Program-made: the position numbers and the translations under genes
Shown: positions 1,986 through 13,506 of the stretch, one piece after another
How the letters are laid out: each line of letters opens with the position of its first letter
How positions within the stretch are numbered: the first letter of the stretch is position 1
IMG/VR virus record: IMGVR_UViG_3300045988_068230
Coordinates: 1-48,682 of that record
Strand: one strand, 5' to 3'
DNA: 48,682 nt
From: a virus
Notes under the pieces: generated by a model
The model's database searches: none
What the model was told of the DNA's origin: nothing
What the model saw: only the letters and a program-made list of their open reading frames with translations

Positions 1986-3437
1986 ATGGGACTTATAACA
2001 ACACTAAAAAGGTGGATAGGGATGTTATTTAAAACTCAAGCAGAGCAGGACTTTCGCACAGAGGTAATAGAGTCTCCCGTGATGGAAGCAATGGTGCAGA
2101 AATGTGCGAATATTTACAGGGGTACGCCGTACTGGGTGGATGAGGATAACGGGATCAAGACAATTAATTTTGCAAAGTCTGTATGCTCAGAGACTGCAAG
2201 ACTAGCAACATTAGCTATCGGTATCCAGATTGACGGATCTGCAAGGGCAACATGGCTACAGGGGCAGATTGACAAGGTATATTTTCAAATCCGCCACTGG
2301 GTGGAGTATGGATGCGCCTATGGAACGGTATTTATCAAACCAAATGGAGATGGATTTGATGTATTTACTCCGCTGGATGTTCTTTTGACGGACTGCGATA
2401 ATCAGGAAATTAGGGGAATTATATTTAAAGATCAGTACGCAGAGGGAGATAAGTTTTATACAAGGCTTGAGTATCACCGGTTCGTAGATAGTATGGTTGA
2501 TGGAGCAAAGGTTTCCCCGTATTACATCAGTAATCGCACTTATGTATCATCCAGCTCTGATAGTATCGGAAATCCGATCGAGATGAGTAAAACAAAATGG
2601 GCTGGATTACTGAGGGATACACCGCCAATTTTAAAAGGGAATAATGAGAGCCTTGACGGCCCTATGTTTGGAGTATTCCGAACACCACAGGCAAACAATA
2701 TTGATCTTAATACAGTCCTAGGGTTGCCAATCTTTGCGGAAGCGATTGAGGAATTGAAAGATCTGGATATAGCATACAGCAGAAATGCCGGAGAGATTTT
2801 CGATTCTGAAAAGATCATTTTAGCGGATGATAGACTGCTGATGCCAGATGGGATGCCCGTGAACATGAAAACACCTGATGGACTGGAGCGAAAGCGAAAA
2901 CAAATGAAGTTACCGCACTATGTAAAAAATGTGTTTGGCAACGATCAAAAAGAATTCTACCAGGAAATCAATCCGGTACTCAACACAGATACCCGTATAA
3001 GCGGCATAAATGCCCTTTTAAGCCAGTTAGGATACAAGATTGGATTCTCCAATGGATATTTTGTTTTTAACGAATCTAGCGGCATTCAGACAGCCACAGG
3101 GGTAGAAGCGGAACAGCAGAGGACAATACAGTTTATCAAGGACGCGAGAGACAAACTGGAATCCTGCCTTGACGGGGCTATCTATGCGATGAATGTGTAT
3201 GCTGATCTGTACGGACTTGCACCGGTTGGGGCTTATAAAGTCAATTATGATTTTGGAGATATCACTTATAATTACCAGGAGGATAAACAAATCTGGCTAG
3301 GCTATGTAAATACCGGCAGGGTGCCGTTTTGGTATTACCTTGTTAAATTTGAGGGATTTAGTGAGGAGGATGCCAAGGCTCTATCGGAAGAAGCGAATAA
3401 GGCAAATAAGGATAGCGGATTGTTTGGAGAGGAGTAA
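1986..3437 (+). CDS. Portal protein (SPP1 gp6-like)
   Basis: 483 aa immediately after the terminase genes. Size, position and overall composition fit a siphovirus portal. Confidence 0.85.
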   Translation: MGLITTLKRWIGMLFKTQAEQDFRTEVIESPVMEAMVQKCANIYRGTPYWVDEDNGIKTINFAKSVCSETARLATLAIGIQIDGSARATWLQGQIDKVYFQIRHWVEYGCAYGTVFIKPNGDGFDVFTPLDVLLTDCDNQEIRGIIFKDQYAEGDKFYTRLEYHRFVDSMVDGAKVSPYYISNRTYVSSSSDSIGNPIEMSKTKWAGLLRDTPPILKGNNESLDGPMFGVFRTPQANNIDLNTVLGLPIFAEAIEELKDLDIAYSRNAGEIFDSEKIILADDRLLMPDGMPVNMKTPDGLERKRKQMKLPHYVKNVFGNDQKEFYQEINPVLNTDTRISGINALLSQLGYKIGFSNGYFVFNESSGIQTATGVEAEQQRTIQFIKDARDKLESCLDGAIYAMNVYADLYGLAPVGAYKVNYDFGDITYNYQEDKQIWLGYVNTGRVPFWYYLVKFEGFSEEDAKALSEEANKANKDSGLFGEE

Positions 3438-3440
3438 GCT

Positions 3441-4778
3441 ATGAGCTATATACCGGAACCAGTTACGAGAACTGATAAATACCTTGCTTATATTGCTGGA
3501 AACATGGACGTTGTTCTTCCAGATCATCCGATAACCAGAAAAGAGCATTATCTTGCGGCGTGGGCTGAGAAAAGTGGATTTGAGGATGTGGATGTTACAG
3601 GCGAACCGCCACTGACACTTGAGAATGCTATCGGCAAGCCGTTGAAGGGGCTGAGGATATATGGGAAGAGTAAGCAAAAAACGACTACAGGGGCGCAGCT
3701 ATTTCCACCCCCAATGCTAGGAAGCCAAGAAAAAAATGGCATAACTATTGATTGCATGGAGGATGGAAAAATACGTATCAGCGGAACGGCTGAAATATTA
3801 ACGGATTTTTACGTATCGAGGCTACAGTTGTCTGCTGGGACCTATACTTCTTCTGCGGGAGTTAATATTGATGAAAGTACGTTAAGATATGCGCTTGTTG
3901 ATGATATTGGAGTGCTATATTACGATGTGGACGTTGACTATACAACAGATACGATAGCTGAAACTATTGATGTATCATTGTTGTTGAGAGTGTACGCTGG
4001 AAAAACAATAGATCTTACCGTCCAGCCAATGCTCAACGCTGGTTCCACCCCTCTCCCATGGGAGCCGTACACCGGCGGCGTACCGAGTCCGTCCCCGGAG
4101 TATCCACAGGAGATTGAGAGTGCAGGTGATGATGGAAATCTCAGTGTCATTGTAAAAAATCCTAATAATGAGCAGATGCAATCTGTGCCTTTCTCAACAC
4201 CCAATGGTCTTCCCGGTATTCCAATCACCTCCGGCGGCAACTACACAGATGCATCCGGCCGACAATGGATTTGTGATGAGGTTGATTTTGGCCGTGGGAT
4301 GTATGTGCAGAACATTAAAGTGAGCAAGAGTCTAAACGACCTGTCGTGGCATACCTGGGGAGTTAATAAGGGTGCTAATGGCATAACTGGCTTTTATACA
4401 TATGATATTGATATACCCAAAATAGACAAGGCCGTTTCCAATATTGCCCGCTATAATGAAGATATACATGGCGGGAAAAGGGAAGGCATCTGTGCATCGA
4501 TAATACAGCCAACGTCTATGACACCATATATGATACTATGTGTCCGCAACGATACAATATCGGATATTTCAAGCGATAATGCGGCGATACAATCATTTAA
4601 GGAGATGCTGGCCAAAACAGATGCTTATATGATGTATGTTCTCGCCACGCCCATCGAAACGACCCTCACCTCTGACCAACTCGCCGCCTATAAGCAACTC
4701 CATACCTACAAAGGCACCACCATTATAGATAATGATGCCGGGGCATATATGAGCGTAAGATACGAAAAAATGAAATAA
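3441..4778 (+). CDS. Fibre/receptor-binding-like structural protein encoded inside the head module
   Basis: 445 aa with SD GGAGAGGAG. The motifs PLKGLRIYGKSKQ and PSPSPEYPQEIESAG resemble Firmicutes phage fibre proteins. Its N-terminal 21 aa are shared with ORF 4792. Confidence 0.6.
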   Translation: MSYIPEPVTRTDKYLAYIAGNMDVVLPDHPITRKEHYLAAWAEKSGFEDVDVTGEPPLTLENAIGKPLKGLRIYGKSKQKTTTGAQLFPPPMLGSQEKNGITIDCMEDGKIRISGTAEILTDFYVSRLQLSAGTYTSSAGVNIDESTLRYALVDDIGVLYYDVDVDYTTDTIAETIDVSLLLRVYAGKTIDLTVQPMLNAGSTPLPWEPYTGGVPSPSPEYPQEIESAGDDGNLSVIVKNPNNEQMQSVPFSTPNGLPGIPITSGGNYTDASGRQWICDEVDFGRGMYVQNIKVSKSLNDLSWHTWGVNKGANGITGFYTYDIDIPKIDKAVSNIARYNEDIHGGKREGICASIIQPTSMTPYMILCVRNDTISDISSDNAAIQSFKEMLAKTDAYMMYVLATPIETTLTSDQLAAYKQLHTYKGTTIIDNDAGAYMSVRYEKMK

Positions 4779-6770: not shown

Positions 6771-7076
6771 ATGAGCATATCAGAATTCATTCAATTTTTT
6801 CTTTCTATCTGCGGAGGGGTATCCATTTTCGGAGGTGCAGCGGCTGTAATTGTTAAGTGGATTACTCCAGCGTTTCGGCTTAATAAGCGAGTGGAGACGC
6901 TGGAAGAACACGATAGACGAGACTATGAAAGTCTTCGAAGAATCGCAGAACGAGATTCGTTAATTCTGGAAGTGTTATCAACTATGTTGGACAGCCAGAT
7001 TAGTGGGGATAACGCCGAGGAATTAAAAAAAACAAAGCAGAAACTTACAAATTATCTTGCACAGAATCAGCGTTAA
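6771..7076 (+). CDS. Small membrane protein (one N-terminal TM plus charged helix; BhlA/UviB-like architecture)
   Basis: TM segment FFLSICGGVSIFGGAAAVIV is followed by a charged coiled region. Any holin-like role is a guess. Confidence 0.55.
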   Translation: MSISEFIQFFLSICGGVSIFGGAAAVIVKWITPAFRLNKRVETLEEHDRRDYESLRRIAERDSLILEVLSTMLDSQISGDNAEELKKTKQKLTNYLAQNQR

Positions 7077-7099
7077 TTGCATTAATAAGAGGTATGCTC

Positions 7100-7300
7100 A
7101 TGAAATTATATGTATTCACAAAGAAAGATATAGACAGATTCTTGGCAGAGTGTAATTTCACGCCGGATGAGGAAAGACTATTCCGGCTGAGGTGCAAAGA
7201 ATATACACTTGAATACTGCGCTGAACAGATGAATGTGAGTATATCCACGGCGAAACGATTAAGCCGGAGAGTAAACAATAAAATAATTAAAGTGTGCTGA
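7100..7300 (+). CDS. Sigma-70 region-4-like small HTH regulator
   Basis: SD AAGAGG is 7 nt before ATG 7100. TPDEERLFRLRCKEYTLEYCAEQMNVSISTAKRLSRRV resembles sigma region 4 / positive-control factors. Confidence 0.65.
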   Translation: MKLYVFTKKDIDRFLAECNFTPDEERLFRLRCKEYTLEYCAEQMNVSISTAKRLSRRVNNKIIKVC

Positions 7301-7307
7301 TACGATA

Positions 7308-7347
7308 AAAGTCCCGGGATTAACTTTCCAGGGGCTTTACTTTTTTA
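7308..7347 (+). terminator. Rho-independent terminator of the packaging/head-morphogenesis operon
   Basis: aaagtcccgg / ccaggggcttt stem followed by acttttttatt. Confidence 0.7.
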
Positions 7348-7376
7348 TTGATAAATATAGCAATCCGTGATATTAT
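7348..7376 (+). promoter_or_regulatory. Sigma-A-type promoter for RNA unit A
   Basis: TTGATA (7348-7353), 17-nt spacer, extended -10 TGaTATTAT (7368-7376). The predicted start at about 7383/7384 is the first base of unit A. Confidence 0.7.
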
Positions 7377-7383
7377 AATCCTA

Positions 7384-7449
7384 GTCGCTACAGATGGACG
7401 CTTCTGTTAGTGGCCTCTGGCAGCTATCCGCCAGGGCAAGGATTGAAAT
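7384..7449 (+). ncRNA. Structured RNA unit A (66 nt) with type I-C CRISPR-repeat-like termini
   Basis: Layout: GTCGCT, hairpin 1 (7388-7394/7403-7410, 1-nt bulge), TGG, hairpin 2 (7415-7421/7430-7436, loop AGCTATCC), CAAGGATTGAAAT. It has no ORF. Its paralog is unit B, with compensatory pair changes. Confidence 0.7.
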
Positions 7450-7491
7450 ATTAGAGTTCTTTTTAAAAAAAAGCTTTTAATAGCTTTTTTA

Positions 7492-7556
7492 GTCGCTCCG
7501 GGTGGTTGCTCCCGAGAGTGGTTCCAGTAGCAATCCACTGGGACAGGGATTAAAAC
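7492..7556 (+). ncRNA. Structured RNA unit B (65 nt), tandem paralog of unit A
   Basis: GTCGCTCC..., the same two hairpins (loops TGGTTGCT and AGCAATCC), ending CAGGGATTAAAAC. The ~40 nt downstream also resemble the sequence after unit A (attag..ttct..ttttaa..aaaaaag). Confidence 0.65.
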
Positions 7557-7576
7557 ATTAGTTCTATTTTTAACTC

Positions 7577-7618
7577 CAAAAAAAAGAAAGCCACATTTAT
7601 TTTTTGAGTGTGACTTTC
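7577..7618 (-). terminator. Terminator of the minus-strand cassette (probably bidirectional)
   Basis: 10-bp stem 7586-7595/7609-7618. The single mismatch becomes a G-U pair on the minus strand, where a run of 8 U follows. On the plus strand tttttatttt follows. Confidence 0.7.
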
Positions 7619-7629
7619 TTTTTATTTTA

Positions 7630-7917
7630 TTATGCGATTTTTCCGTCCCCATAGCATTTATAAACCGCTTCTACCAGCTCCGCCAGTTCTTCCGGCGTAA
7701 GCTTTTCCTTTAAGCTGTCCGGGATGCGGCTATAATTTGCTCGGAATGCATCAGAGCATCTACCGATGTTACAAACCTTCTTGACTTGTTCGAGTTTGTA
7801 CATTGTTCCAAGTTCTTCCATGCTGATTTCTCCAGCATTAACGGCTTCCCGTCCTTCTTTTGTTAAAATAGACATTGCCTCTTTCTTATTAATAACTCCG
7901 ATTCCATTAATTTTCAT
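7630..7917 (-). CDS. Hypothetical small protein (95 aa), third gene of the minus-strand cassette
   Basis: ORF 7630..7953; SD AAGGAAGG lies 8 nt before ATG 7917. No family recognised. Confidence 0.6.
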   Translation of the reverse strand: MKINGIGVINKKEAMSILTKEGREAVNAGEISMEELGTMYKLEQVKKVCNIGRCSDAFRANYSRIPDSLKEKLTPEELAELVEAVYKCYGDGKIA

Positions 7918-7939
7918 GTTCTTTTCCTTCCTTTCACAA

Positions 7940-8194
7940 TTAGTCAGCGTCAATTATTCTTACGGTTGTTTTTAATATTTGAGATTTGTTCTTTATTATT
8001 TCAAAAAATAATACATATTCTTCTCCATCCTCGTCCTGCACCGAGATTTTTCCGCTTCTCAAAATTTCAGAAATATTTCCTTTCCCATTCCAAAGTTTTT
8101 CAATTGGATAGGTATCTCCGATATGTATATCATGCCCCAGTTGGATGCAATATGCATATTCCGAAAGAATTCCACTTGTATATTCATCATACAT
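7940..8194 (-). CDS. Hypothetical small acidic protein (84 aa), second gene of the cassette
   Basis: ORF 7940..8218; SD GAGGGG lies 7 nt before ATG 8194. D/E-rich, no family recognised. Confidence 0.6.
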   Translation of the reverse strand: MYDEYTSGILSEYAYCIQLGHDIHIGDTYPIEKLWNGKGNISEILRSGKISVQDEDGEEYVLFFEIIKNKSQILKTTVRIIDAD

Positions 8195-8207
8195 TCTTTT
8201 TCCCCTC

Positions 8208-8393
8208 TTATCTTTCATTCTCTTCCAGCTGATCGAGTGCTGTTAGTACGGTATCCCTAATAAAAGCAGTATTGCTTTTCCCGAGACTTAATTTTTCTAT
8301 TCTTTCTTTCGTTCCCCTTGGGAATACGATATTTAGGCGATAGTTATTGTTTTCGTATTTTCTAATCGCTCTTTTCTGAGCTTCTGTTGCCAT
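8208..8393 (-). CDS. Ribbon-helix-helix (Arc/CopG-like) DNA-binding protein, first gene of the cassette
   Basis: SD AGAGGA lies 7 nt before ATG 8393. MATEAQKRAIRKYENNNYRLNIVFPRGTKERIEKL... has the beta-strand plus two-helix RHH pattern. Confidence 0.7.
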   Translation of the reverse strand: MATEAQKRAIRKYENNNYRLNIVFPRGTKERIEKLSLGKSNTAFIRDTVLTALDQLEENER

Positions 8394-8442
8394 AATCATT
8401 TCCTCTTGATTTTCTATTATTTTTGATGTATTATACATATAT

Positions 8443-8454
8443 CAGCAATTGCTG
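8443..8454. promoter_or_regulatory. Perfect 12-bp palindrome CAGCAATTGCTG (candidate RHH operator)
   Basis: Lies 8-19 nt upstream of the minus-strand TATAAT (8435-8430) of the RHH operon. It also overlaps the -35-like TTGCTG of the plus-strand unit C. Confidence 0.5.
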
Positions 8455-8479
8455 ATACTCAGTATTTATTTATACTGAG

Positions 8480-8511
8480 GTTCGCTCTATTCGTGGGGCG
8501 CGGATTGAAAT
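8480..8511 (+). ncRNA. Solitary 32-nt type I-C CRISPR-repeat-like unit (unit C); not an array
   Basis: GTTCGCTCTATTCGTGGGGCGCGGATTGAAAT. Stem 8483-8488/8495-8500 (6 bp, 2 G-U), 6-nt loop, and exactly 11 nt of tail CGGATTGAAAT. An intrinsic terminator lies 20 nt downstream. Confidence 0.6.
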
Positions 8512-8530
8512 ATATAATTATTTTTCAAGG

Positions 8531-8558
8531 AAAAGCAGCTGTTATAGCTGCTTTTTTC
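8531..8558. terminator. Bidirectional intrinsic terminator
   Basis: aaaagcagct / agctgctttt stem. A T-run follows on the plus strand (after unit C) and an A-run/T-run on the minus strand (after CDS 8560..8760). Confidence 0.75.
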
Positions 8559-12986: not shown

Positions 12987-13275
12987 TCCTGCAAGGAGTA
13001 GCGACCTTGCAAGGACTTTCTGACTGAGAGTTTTTGCTTTCTTTTTTCATCATTTCCTCCTTTCTCTGGATGTGCCCTTAAGCAGAAACAGGCTTTGAGC
13101 GGCCTGGAGGTTGAAAAGCGGATGCAATTTCCGGCACATCCCTTTACCAGTAATGGCAGGCTGGTAACACCTCCTTGTGAGACGGGTAATAAAAACAGGT
13201 GGAACCTTCCGTGAAAGTCGGATAGTGGCAGGCATAACACGATAAACACCTTGCTAACCCGGGAATCCGGGTTAT
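12987..13275 (+). ncRNA. Structured non-coding leader of the late structural operon
   Basis: No credible plus-strand ORF. Contains a 5'-proximal 10-bp hairpin (12987-13015), a 9-bp long-range helix (13068-13076/13133-13141), and hairpins at 13089-13106, 13144-13167 and 13256-13273. Confidence 0.5.
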
Positions 13276-13365
13276 GGGAAAGCGGCAACGATTGGCGGTG
13301 TTGCGGCGGACTGTAAATCCGTTCCCTTGTGGTAAACAATATAGGTTCAATTCCTATCTTTCCCA
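13276..13365 (+). tRNA. tRNA-Tyr (anticodon GTA), class II with long variable arm
   Basis: Acceptor GGGAAAG/CTTTCCC, anticodon arm GCGGA-CTGTAAA-TCCGT, variable stem TTGT/ACAA, T arm ATAGG-TTCAATT-CCTAT, discriminator A. C at position 8 is atypical. Confidence 0.75.
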
Positions 13366-13434
13366 CGATTCAACATGTTGAAAAGGTTATGTCTTATCCT
13401 GTTATCTGCTGGGCGGATCAAAAAGACAATACGA

Positions 13435-13506
13435 TGGAATATGGCTCAGTGGTAGAGCAGTAGCCTTATAGGCTATGTGTCGCAAGTTCGATTCTTGCTA
13501 TTCCGA
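13435..13506 (+). tRNA. tRNA-Ile (anticodon TAT)
   Basis: Canonical cloverleaf: D arm GCTC-AGTGGTA-GAGC, anticodon arm GTAGC-CTTATAG-GCTAT, T arm GCAAG-TTCGATT-CTTGC. The 1-72 pair is U-G and no CCA is encoded. Confidence 0.8.

Follow-up and report, generated by a model that had tools for sequence, protein, structure and literature searches.

RNA anti-CRISPRs (Racrs) are small non-coding RNAs of phages and prophages that lie outside CRISPR arrays, have their own promoter and copy features of a CRISPR repeat (PMC10651486, Camara-Wilpert et al. 2023). RacrIF1 sequesters Cas subunits, and RacrIC1 is also active (PMC10651486); the latter is a single near full-length repeat copy, 29/34 identical to the model repeat in our comparison. 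Two other kinds of phage RNA are comparable: Cracrs (or crlRNAs), which are repeat-derived, sometimes occur as divergent tandem copies and often lie beside Acr proteins (Liu et al., bioRxiv 10.1101/2024.10.29.618823), and rAcrIIA1, a small RNA that mimics a whole single-guide RNA (bioRxiv 10.64898/2026.06.03.729762). Here we describe RNA units in the human-gut phage record IMGVR_UViG_3300045988_068230 of IMG/VR, whose 48,682 nt were all analyzed (hereafter, the window): two tandem units, A and B, and a simpler third unit, X. We read them as putative repeat-mimic RNA anti-CRISPRs aimed at the type I-C systems of Lachnospiraceae and Ruminococcus hosts, and we give this reading a probability of roughly 0.55. 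Its basis is the sequence, structure and conservation of the units, the promoter and terminator signals around them, the presence of I-C hosts that target phages carrying them, and anti-defence neighbours in related loci.

Type I-C repeats are 32-33 nt long, with a 2-nt 5' overhang, a 7-bp stem, a 4-6-nt loop and an 11-nt 3' overhang, UGGAUUGAAAY, and recognition by the enzyme BhaCas5c depends mainly on U22-G23-G24 and the 3' overhang, with neither loop nor 5' overhang being read (PMC8524198). The repeat of Roseburia hominis is GTCGCTCCCTGTGAGGGGAGCGTGGATTGAAAT (PMC4645204), and gut I-C arrays read GTCGCTCC-loop-GGAGCGTGGATTGAAAT. The termini of the units equal those of the gut repeats, GTCGCTCC... 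and ...GGATTGAAAT (PMC4645204), and unit B itself begins with GTCGCTCC. Units and repeats have in common the 5' GUCGCU(CC), a G/C-rich stem starting at C3, the (A)GUGG that follows the stem, and the 3' end GGAUUGAAAY. Hairpin 1 of a unit together with G|UGG reproduces the I-C cleavage context, and the tail is equal to nucleotides 2-11 of the 5' handle of the CRISPR RNA (crRNA). In contrast to the repeats, the units are 65-66 nt long and have two hairpins with 8-nt loops, the handle is split by the second hairpin, and the base before GGAUUGAAA, which corresponds to U22, is A, G or C; in contrast to I-C arrays, they have neither variable spacers nor cas genes. Compared with RacrIC1, units A and B are twice as long, share only the termini of the repeat, and have two hairpins whose conserved 8-nt loops can pair with each other. 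The features of this part of the window are as follows.

7348-7379, plus strand: promoter-like site of units A and B, with the -35 element TTGATA at 7348-7353, a 17-nt spacing and the TG-extended -10 element TATTAT at 7371-7376
7384-7449, plus strand: unit A, 66 nt, identified by its fold, by covariation and by covariance model R1 (80.5 bits, E 4e-22)
7386-7412, plus strand: hairpin 1 of unit A, with loop 1 UGGACGCU at 7395-7402
7410-7413, plus strand: linker GUGG of unit A
7415-7436, plus strand: hairpin 2 of unit A, with loop 2 AGCUAUCC at 7422-7429
7440-7449, plus strand: tail of unit A, GGAUUGAAAU
7467-7490, plus strand: weak AT-rich hairpin and T-run between the units (fold of 7450-7491, -8.5 kcal/mol, z -1.4)
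7492-7556, plus strand: unit B, 65 nt, identified by its fold and by model R1 (83.4 bits)
7494-7520, plus strand: hairpin 1 of unit B, with loop 1 UGGUUGCU at 7503-7510
7522-7543, plus strand: hairpin 2 of unit B, with loop 2 AGCAAUCC at 7529-7536
7547-7556, plus strand: tail of unit B, GGAUUAAAAC
7581-7623: strong hairpin followed by a U-run (-18.2 kcal/mol, z -4.8)

An earlier note on this DNA, made from the sequence alone, had proposed a promoter in front of two tandem two-hairpin units. In a consensus scan the strong promoter-like site, TTGATA-17 nt-TG-TATTAT, matched 10 of 12 consensus positions, with the TG present, and was the best site within 6800-8300; TATAAT at 7374-7379 overlaps it. 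A transcript start at or adjoining G7384 is plausible because GTCGCT begins at 7384. The two units align end to end with one gap, and both fold as proposed into two adjacent hairpins and a free 12-13-nt tail (A, -24.1 kcal/mol with z = -2.0; B, -26.0 kcal/mol with z = -2.5). The seven double compensatory differences between A and B, at 7390/7408, 7392/7405 and 7394/7403 in hairpin 1 and at four pairs in hairpin 2, are real. Parts of the earlier description needed correction. GTCGCT had been taken as a free 5' flank, whereas its positions 3-6 pair with AGUG and therefore belong to stem 1. As for the absence of an open reading frame, a mechanical 81-aa frame does lie at 7407-7652 on the minus strand, but no frame is conserved across the family of related units, and a coding reading was rejected on this ground.

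The same promoter stands upstream of single units in three related loci (L009, L018 and L020). A copy of it (ttattgataaacatagtaatctgcgatattataaat) was also seen at 2975-3010 of phage MT839401 (L023) with no RNA unit behind it; it may be that these phages use this promoter type at other places too, or that the copy is left over from a unit since lost. The hairpin between units A and B was not called by the terminator scan and is conserved, not variable, among related phages. It is probably a leaky terminator, and if leaky it would leave unit B transcribable by read-through. The stronger hairpin at 7581-7623 is predicted to be a bidirectional terminator common to unit B and to the convergent gene p96 on the minus strand.

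Close and distant relatives of the units were recovered by pattern scans of IMG/VR, by one scan of GTDB genomes, and from loci fetched via the neighbouring protein. A first loose viral pattern (GTGG..WATCC..GGATTGAAA) was abandoned since it was swamped by chance matches in coding DNA, and a tighter pattern worked. The covariance model R1 scores relatives at 43-85 bits, and its search of the related loci returned 34 copies (21 distinct) with E values of 1e-14 to 1e-23. The family comprises at least 24 distinct sequences of about ten types, from phages and prophages of gut Clostridia. Their 5' ends read GUCGCU, GUCGCA/G, GUCAC, AUCAC or GUCC, and the tail is invariant except for its last base in 21 of the 24 distinct units, the three exceptions being GGGUUG, GAGAUUG and GGAUUA variants. 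In the consensus scans, a -10-like TAtAAT box was present 5-8 nt ahead of GUC in every type, and each type has a terminator behind it. Units are single in some loci and form tandem pairs of divergent copies in others, as with A and B here and with two further types in L054. Because five loci (L005, L008, L013, L015 and L020) have only 7306-7633 in common with the window, we conclude that the module moves as a cassette. The bacterial matches in the GTDB genome-wide pattern scan were two prophage-like regions, one in a metagenome-assembled genome (MAG) of Ruminococcus and the other in Ca. Cottocaccamicrobium, a genus of Lachnospiraceae; the hosts are Clostridia of the Lachnospiraceae/Ruminococcus kind. 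BLAST against GenBank phages found MT839401 and its relatives alone, in which the units are unannotated. A search of Rfam 15, at gathering thresholds and at E values up to 10, gave no family for the units; their best match to a CRISPR-DR model reached 11.7 bits, where the gathering score is 45.

The units are conserved, structured non-coding RNAs of these phages and prophages, their structure is under selection as the earlier note had proposed, and both hairpins are supported by covariation. In the 24 distinct sequences, both sides of the pair change at 7 of 9 pairs in hairpin 1 and at all 7 in hairpin 2 (14 of 16 stem pairs together). The share of paired cells is 89.7%, compared with 70.7% after shuffling and 27-47% when the partners are slid. 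Within stem 1, the pairs formed by GUCGCU are C3-G; G4.U or A4-U; C5-G; and U6-A, A-U or G-C. In a type-C variant at 3331-3394 of L308, G4.U28 of stem 1 is replaced by A4/C28 (GTCACT...AAGCGG). This is an isosteric A+.C wobble, or else it indicates that the supposed pair is recognized by its sequence (G|UGG becoming G|CGG).

The two loops are the most conserved internal elements of the units (consensus UGGAUGCU for loop 1 and AGCAAUCC for loop 2). They are complementary over 7 bp, with 88% of the cells paired, and compensatory changes occur at two of these pairs (U-A replaces C-G in four sequences, and it replaces G-C in L321). Loop 2 is equally complementary to GGAUUG of the tail, where 92% of the cells are paired and one C-G to U.G to U-A series is seen. 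The mean duplex energies are -5.3 kcal/mol for loop 1-loop 2 and -4.9 kcal/mol for loop 2-tail, while a shuffled loop 2 gives about -2.5 and -1.9 kcal/mol; with one or two compensatory pairs each, the two pairings are not separable. The tertiary fold suggested by these sequences is likely a kissing loop or a pseudoknot. The complementary loops had been missed at the first reading of this DNA, together with the linked p96 gene and unit X.

Unit X lies 0.9 kb from A and B in the same 1.2-kb accessory region, between small genes on the minus strand, so that this region holds three I-C-like RNA genes.

8406-8434, plus strand: promoter-like site of unit X (TTGATT, 17 nt, TATTAT)
8441-8511, plus strand: unit X RNA, with 5' hairpins at 8441-8456 and 8458-8479, then a 32-nt solitary repeat of I-C shape, GTTCGCUCUAUUCGUGGGGCGCGGAUUGAAAU
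8480-8511, plus strand: the solitary repeat of unit X, GTTCGCTCTATTCGTGGGGCGCGGATTGAAAT, with a 6-bp stem and a tetraloop, then G-CGGAUUGAAAU
8529-8557, plus strand: intrinsic terminator of unit X, a 13-bp stem and a T-run

The scores of unit X are 17.2 bits with model R1 and 12.8 bits (E 2) with Rfam CRISPR-DR9, and its fold has z values of -4.3 and -5.6. With its 32-nt length and its shape, the repeat roughly fits what is expected of an I-C repeat, and as judged from its sequence unit X is a Racr-shaped solitary repeat; it alone of the three units has this shape. The IMG/VR scan found no homolog and no identical copy of unit X, with a pattern that itself required C at position 22. What it returned were only other solitary I-C-like repeats with C instead of U at this position (...GGGCGCGGATTGAAA), as in unit X and as the pattern demanded, on environmental viral contigs of IMG/VR (L292, L293, L295 and L297-L299).

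Evidence on the hosts came from their spacers. A metagenome scan for the I-C repeat-spacer-repeat junction yielded 120 loci, mostly from human gut, with 2,489 unique spacers. Near full-length matches to these spacers were found in 10 of the 41 family-bearing loci (333 kb) and in none of 145 other viral loci (1.34 Mb), although these controls were not host-matched, which weakens the comparison as an argument for our reading. The 5'-TTC protospacer-adjacent motif (PAM) of type I-C is present at 6 of 8 protospacers, and in L199 a cas3-cas5c-cas8c-cas7-cas4-cas1c-cas2 operon adjoins such an array. These spacers are indirect evidence that the hosts carry the cognate I-C subtype. One spacer, sp1117 (L223:416-449), is antisense to unit B and matches it at 32/34 positions in L003 (2804-2837) and at 26/27 positions in the window (7525-7551). 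The TTC PAM of this spacer arises from the GAAAC tail, as the complement of the GAA there. Unit B of the window is the only family member with the tail GGAUUAAAAC, in which the GGATTAAAAC variant turns the PAM of sp1117 from TTC to TTT, and this change is a possible CRISPR escape mutation inside a putative anti-CRISPR gene.

How the RNAs might act can be outlined as follows; the contacts with Cas proteins are all ones that we infer, and the trapping of Cas5c, Cas7 and Cas8c purely so. Strong transcription of each RNA from an extended -10 promoter of its own would begin at the G of GUC, and the product would fold into two side-by-side hairpins joined by loop-loop pairing or, alternatively, by pairing of loop 2 with the tail. 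Hairpin 1 with its flanks (GUC...AG|UGG) would present a copy of the I-C repeat hairpin and of the Cas5c cleavage-site context, and the free 3' tail, GGAUUGAAAY, a copy of nucleotides 2-11 of the handle that Cas5c grips. Because hairpin 1 and the tail copy the repeat and the handle, the RNA may compete with pre-crRNA and crRNA, first for Cas5c and afterwards for Cas7 and Cas8c, giving dead-end particles by analogy with those formed by RacrIF1 with Cas6f and Cas7f. Neither half would be a complete substrate, hairpin 1 being without AUUGAAAU and the U22-equivalent by the tail being almost never U, and for this reason tight binding with poor or aberrant cleavage is predicted.

We also considered, as a possible but rather doubtful elaboration, that the units are a widespread gut-phage RNA family in which a compact kissing-loop or pseudoknot fold displays a split I-C repeat as a trap of Cas5c or Cascade without turnover, often in a two-gene module with p96. 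The unit gene would itself be a CRISPR target, because copying the handle puts a TTC PAM on the complementary strand, and the PAM-destroying GGAUUAAAAC variant would be an escape mutation. The family would then form a structurally new class of RNA anti-CRISPR, possibly directed against several systems with an AUUGAAAY handle (I-C and I-B).

Several results weigh against a role of the units as I-C repeat mimics. Apart from a hairpin, they resemble I-C repeats over no more than about 6-8 nt at the 5' end and about 10 nt at the 3' end. When model R2, a covariance model of 23 gut I-C repeats, was run on the window with filters off, unit X ranked first with 14.5 bits (E 0.25) and the 3' half of unit A second with 12.6 bits (E 0.77); the tail alone aligns, and neither match is significant. 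The expected likeness to the host repeat holds for the termini, which match the repeats of the likely hosts, but not for this model, which was discarded as a detector of the units for being too sequence-specific. At the position equivalent to U22, 17 of 18 variants have a base other than U. The two loops are the best conserved parts, yet the loop is irrelevant to the recognition of normal repeats by Cas5c (PMC8524198). AUUGAAAY, as in the tail, also serves as the handle in crRNAs of types I-B and III, an I-B-like 37-nt repeat has AGCTATCC-N10-GGATTGAAAC in common with unit A, and the viral Cas5 linked to some units is closest to I-B Cas5. The window has no recognizable acr or cas gene, no AcrIC5 and no viral Cas5.

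Compared with Racrs as a group, the family is likewise borne on phages or mobile genetic elements outside arrays, in one or few copies, with a promoter-like site (from consensus scans) within 250 bp upstream, but model R2 did not detect whole-length repeat similarity in units A and B. The architecture had been described earlier as a second hairpin inserted into the handle; this is one reading of it, and hairpin 2 with the tail is equally repeat-like, which would make hairpin 1 with GUGG a truncated second copy. A look for repeat-spacer alternation in the window revealed two copies only, with the conserved terminator-like hairpin between them and no cas genes. A mimic for phage attachment (attP) or array integration was rejected because only 6-10 nt are common to units and repeats.

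In most lineages of the family the RNA has a protein-coding neighbour.

7630-7917, minus strand: p96 gene, convergent with the RNA, encoding a 95-aa protein (MKINGIGVINKKEAMSILTKEGREAV...)

The AlphaFold2 model of p96 is a confident all-helical domain (pLDDT 93.8), with no fold match in PDB or BFVD and no Pfam or PHROG family; at 90% identity the p96 family divides into more than 169 clusters, none with a label other than hypothetical. The RNA could be a partner of p96, as a component of a ribonucleoprotein, a regulator or part of a module with a shared 3' end, with a role other than blocking type I-C, for example in other anti-defence, and with repeat-like ends that reflect ancestry. We regard this as unlikely, though it is the alternative that fares best. 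The p96 gene is directly downstream and convergent in the window and in L003, L011, L014, L021-23, L024, L031/L158, L159, L167 and L168, and the RNA was found 25-60 nt downstream of p96 in 21 of 21 loci fetched via three p96 clusters (8/8 for P0111, 8/8 for P0026 and 5/5 for P0120). However, none of the five P0101 loci (0/5) has the RNA, and the RNA occurs without p96 in L005, L008, L013, L015, L009, L018, L020 and L062/66/88. Moreover, the transcripts of RNA and p96 overlap only in the terminator hairpin, and a partnership leaves both the invariant GGAUUGAAAY tail and unit X unexplained. The occurrence of a Tad2-like (anti-Thoeris) neighbour in one set of loci is in favour of another anti-defence role: Tad2-like genes (PF11195) lie within 2 kb of the p96 and RNA module in L321 (5947-6462), L322 and L324. 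An AcrIC5-like gene (PF22147) is found within 2 kb of the module in L300 (5134-5391; about 2 kb away, E 2.4e-10), L303, L305 and L307; AcrIC5 is also the neighbour of RacrIC1, and the window itself has no such gene. Both kinds of gene are set in small-gene islands of gut mobile elements or at prophage ends. Together with the viral Cas5 homologs described next, they count in favour of our main reading of the units as anti-CRISPRs aimed at type I-C.

Another neighbour bears on which CRISPR type is mimicked. Solo homologs of Cas5 (230-236 aa) are encoded at L309:3622-4314 (plus strand), at L021:1229-1939 (minus strand), and in L022 and L308-L315, two genes from a type-C RNA unit. They recall AcrIB3, a viral Cas5 homolog that acts as an anti-CRISPR by being a faulty Cascade subunit (bioRxiv 10.1101/2023.06.24.545427), and they suggest a theme of sabotage of Cascade assembly, although AcrIB3 is a protein and the window has no viral Cas5. 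It is improbable, in our estimation, that the mimicry is aimed at another CRISPR type with an AUUGAAAY handle (I-B or III), or at several at once, perhaps together with these phage Cas5 homologs. The homologs are indeed closest to I-B Cas5t (TIGR01895, E 3e-21, versus E 2e-5 for Cas5d of Pfam, PF09704); they occur, however, in one phage lineage only. The base before GGAUUGAAA varies in the units, unlike in I-C repeats, and the nearest Rfam model is that of a 37-nt repeat, CRISPR-DR9, whereas the 5' GUCGCU(CC) and the GUGG following the stem are hallmarks of type I-C. The match of the 37-nt I-B-like repeat to unit A, AGCTATCC-N10-(CAA)GGATTGAAAC, was largely forced by the search pattern. The spacers against these phages come from I-C arrays beside an I-C operon, I-C arrays alone having been searched.

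Two observations were made beside these searches. Four GTDB MAG contigs (L160, L164, L166 and L169) have very long CRISPR arrays, with 51-109 copies per fetched locus of a 37-nt repeat, GTTTGAGTCAGCTATCCATTAAAACAAGGATTGAAAC, which has AGCTATCC-N10-CAAGGATTGAAAC in common with the 3' half of unit A; mis-binning is suggested because MAGs of a single sample set that are assigned to three phyla have the identical repeat. In L309, the stretch immediately behind the viral Cas5 gene (4320-4570, plus strand) has a promoter-like site, two tandem repeats of about 77 nt, each with a small hairpin and AATGTAAARTTRGA...ATTAAGCTAA...CCCATTKTGGAA, and a terminator, and no gene is called over about 900 nt. 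By its sequence this looks like an unrelated, undescribed RNA pair.

The tandem arrangement raises the question of whether the transcript is a crRNA-like regulatory guide of the Cracr kind, in which the handle and the 35-42 nt downstream of it, after cleavage by Cas5c, would enter host Cascade and, through partial pairing, repress cas or safeguard genes. The order of tail, 35-42 nt and next I-C-like hairpin imitates the order of handle, spacer and hairpin (with 42 nt between tail and next unit in the window, and 35 nt in L054), and viral Cracr arrays of type I-C exist (bioRxiv 10.1101/2024.10.29.618823). Nevertheless, we find this very unlikely, since single units are common and the 'spacer' is an AT-rich terminator with no seed conserved across types. 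A Cracr depends on a pseudo-spacer able to pair with a host promoter, and no such conserved seed or target was found for the units: when the 120 I-C loci (650 kb) were searched for TTC plus the initial 9-12 nt of each of 13 post-tail sequences, only two sporadic matches came up, a weakly negative result, as the fetched DNA does not contain many cas promoters.

That the units are pseudo-antitoxins neutralizing a host type III toxin-antitoxin or an abortive-infection endoribonuclease (ToxIN/CptIN-like) is hardly credible: CptIN systems occur in Lachnospiraceae, and the units are tandem, pseudoknot-prone RNAs behind one phage promoter, but type III antitoxin RNAs are near-identical tandem repeats co-oriented upstream of a toxin gene, whereas here the copies differ from each other and have separate terminators, the gene downstream is convergent and its product matches no known fold, no toxin gene follows on the same strand, and the one genome-wide pattern scan led to two prophage-like places only and never to a host antitoxin array.

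Elsewhere in the window, on the plus strand at 13067-13142, 13276-13366 and 13435-13506, a RAGATH-21 RNA (Rfam RF03097, 75.4 bits, above gathering) adjoins two tRNAs, namely a tRNA-Ile with anticodon tat and an unusually long, 91-nt tRNA-Tyr called by ARAGORN only.

RNA anti-CRISPRs and solitary I-C repeats are already known; what is new is the elaborated two-hairpin family, which is outside Rfam. The portion of the SRUFinder table of the Racr paper that was available to us includes no two-hairpin unit, and we found no description of this architecture, in line with the earlier note, which was aware of none. As a precedent for a composite structured RNA mimic, rAcrIIA1 is the nearest, although it targets Cas9 (type II) and is unrelated to the units in architecture and sequence. 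Detectors that demand identity to a repeat over nearly its full length can be expected to miss the family.

RNA anti-CRISPRs have so far been found through near-exact solitary copies of repeats, and our family, if the interpretation as I-C repeat mimics is true, consists of elaborated structured mimics that such searches miss. The protein p96 is a new family with a confident fold and a candidate anti-CRISPR or RNA partner. A natural RNA that may bind Cas5c or Cascade unprocessed could serve as an off-switch for I-C genome-editing tools. The setting is the Clostridia of the human gut, where type I-C was common among the arrays sampled, and the family is therefore relevant to phage-host dynamics in the microbiome; the host spacers against the putative inhibitor gene and the PAM loss in unit B are a signature of an arms race between the two.

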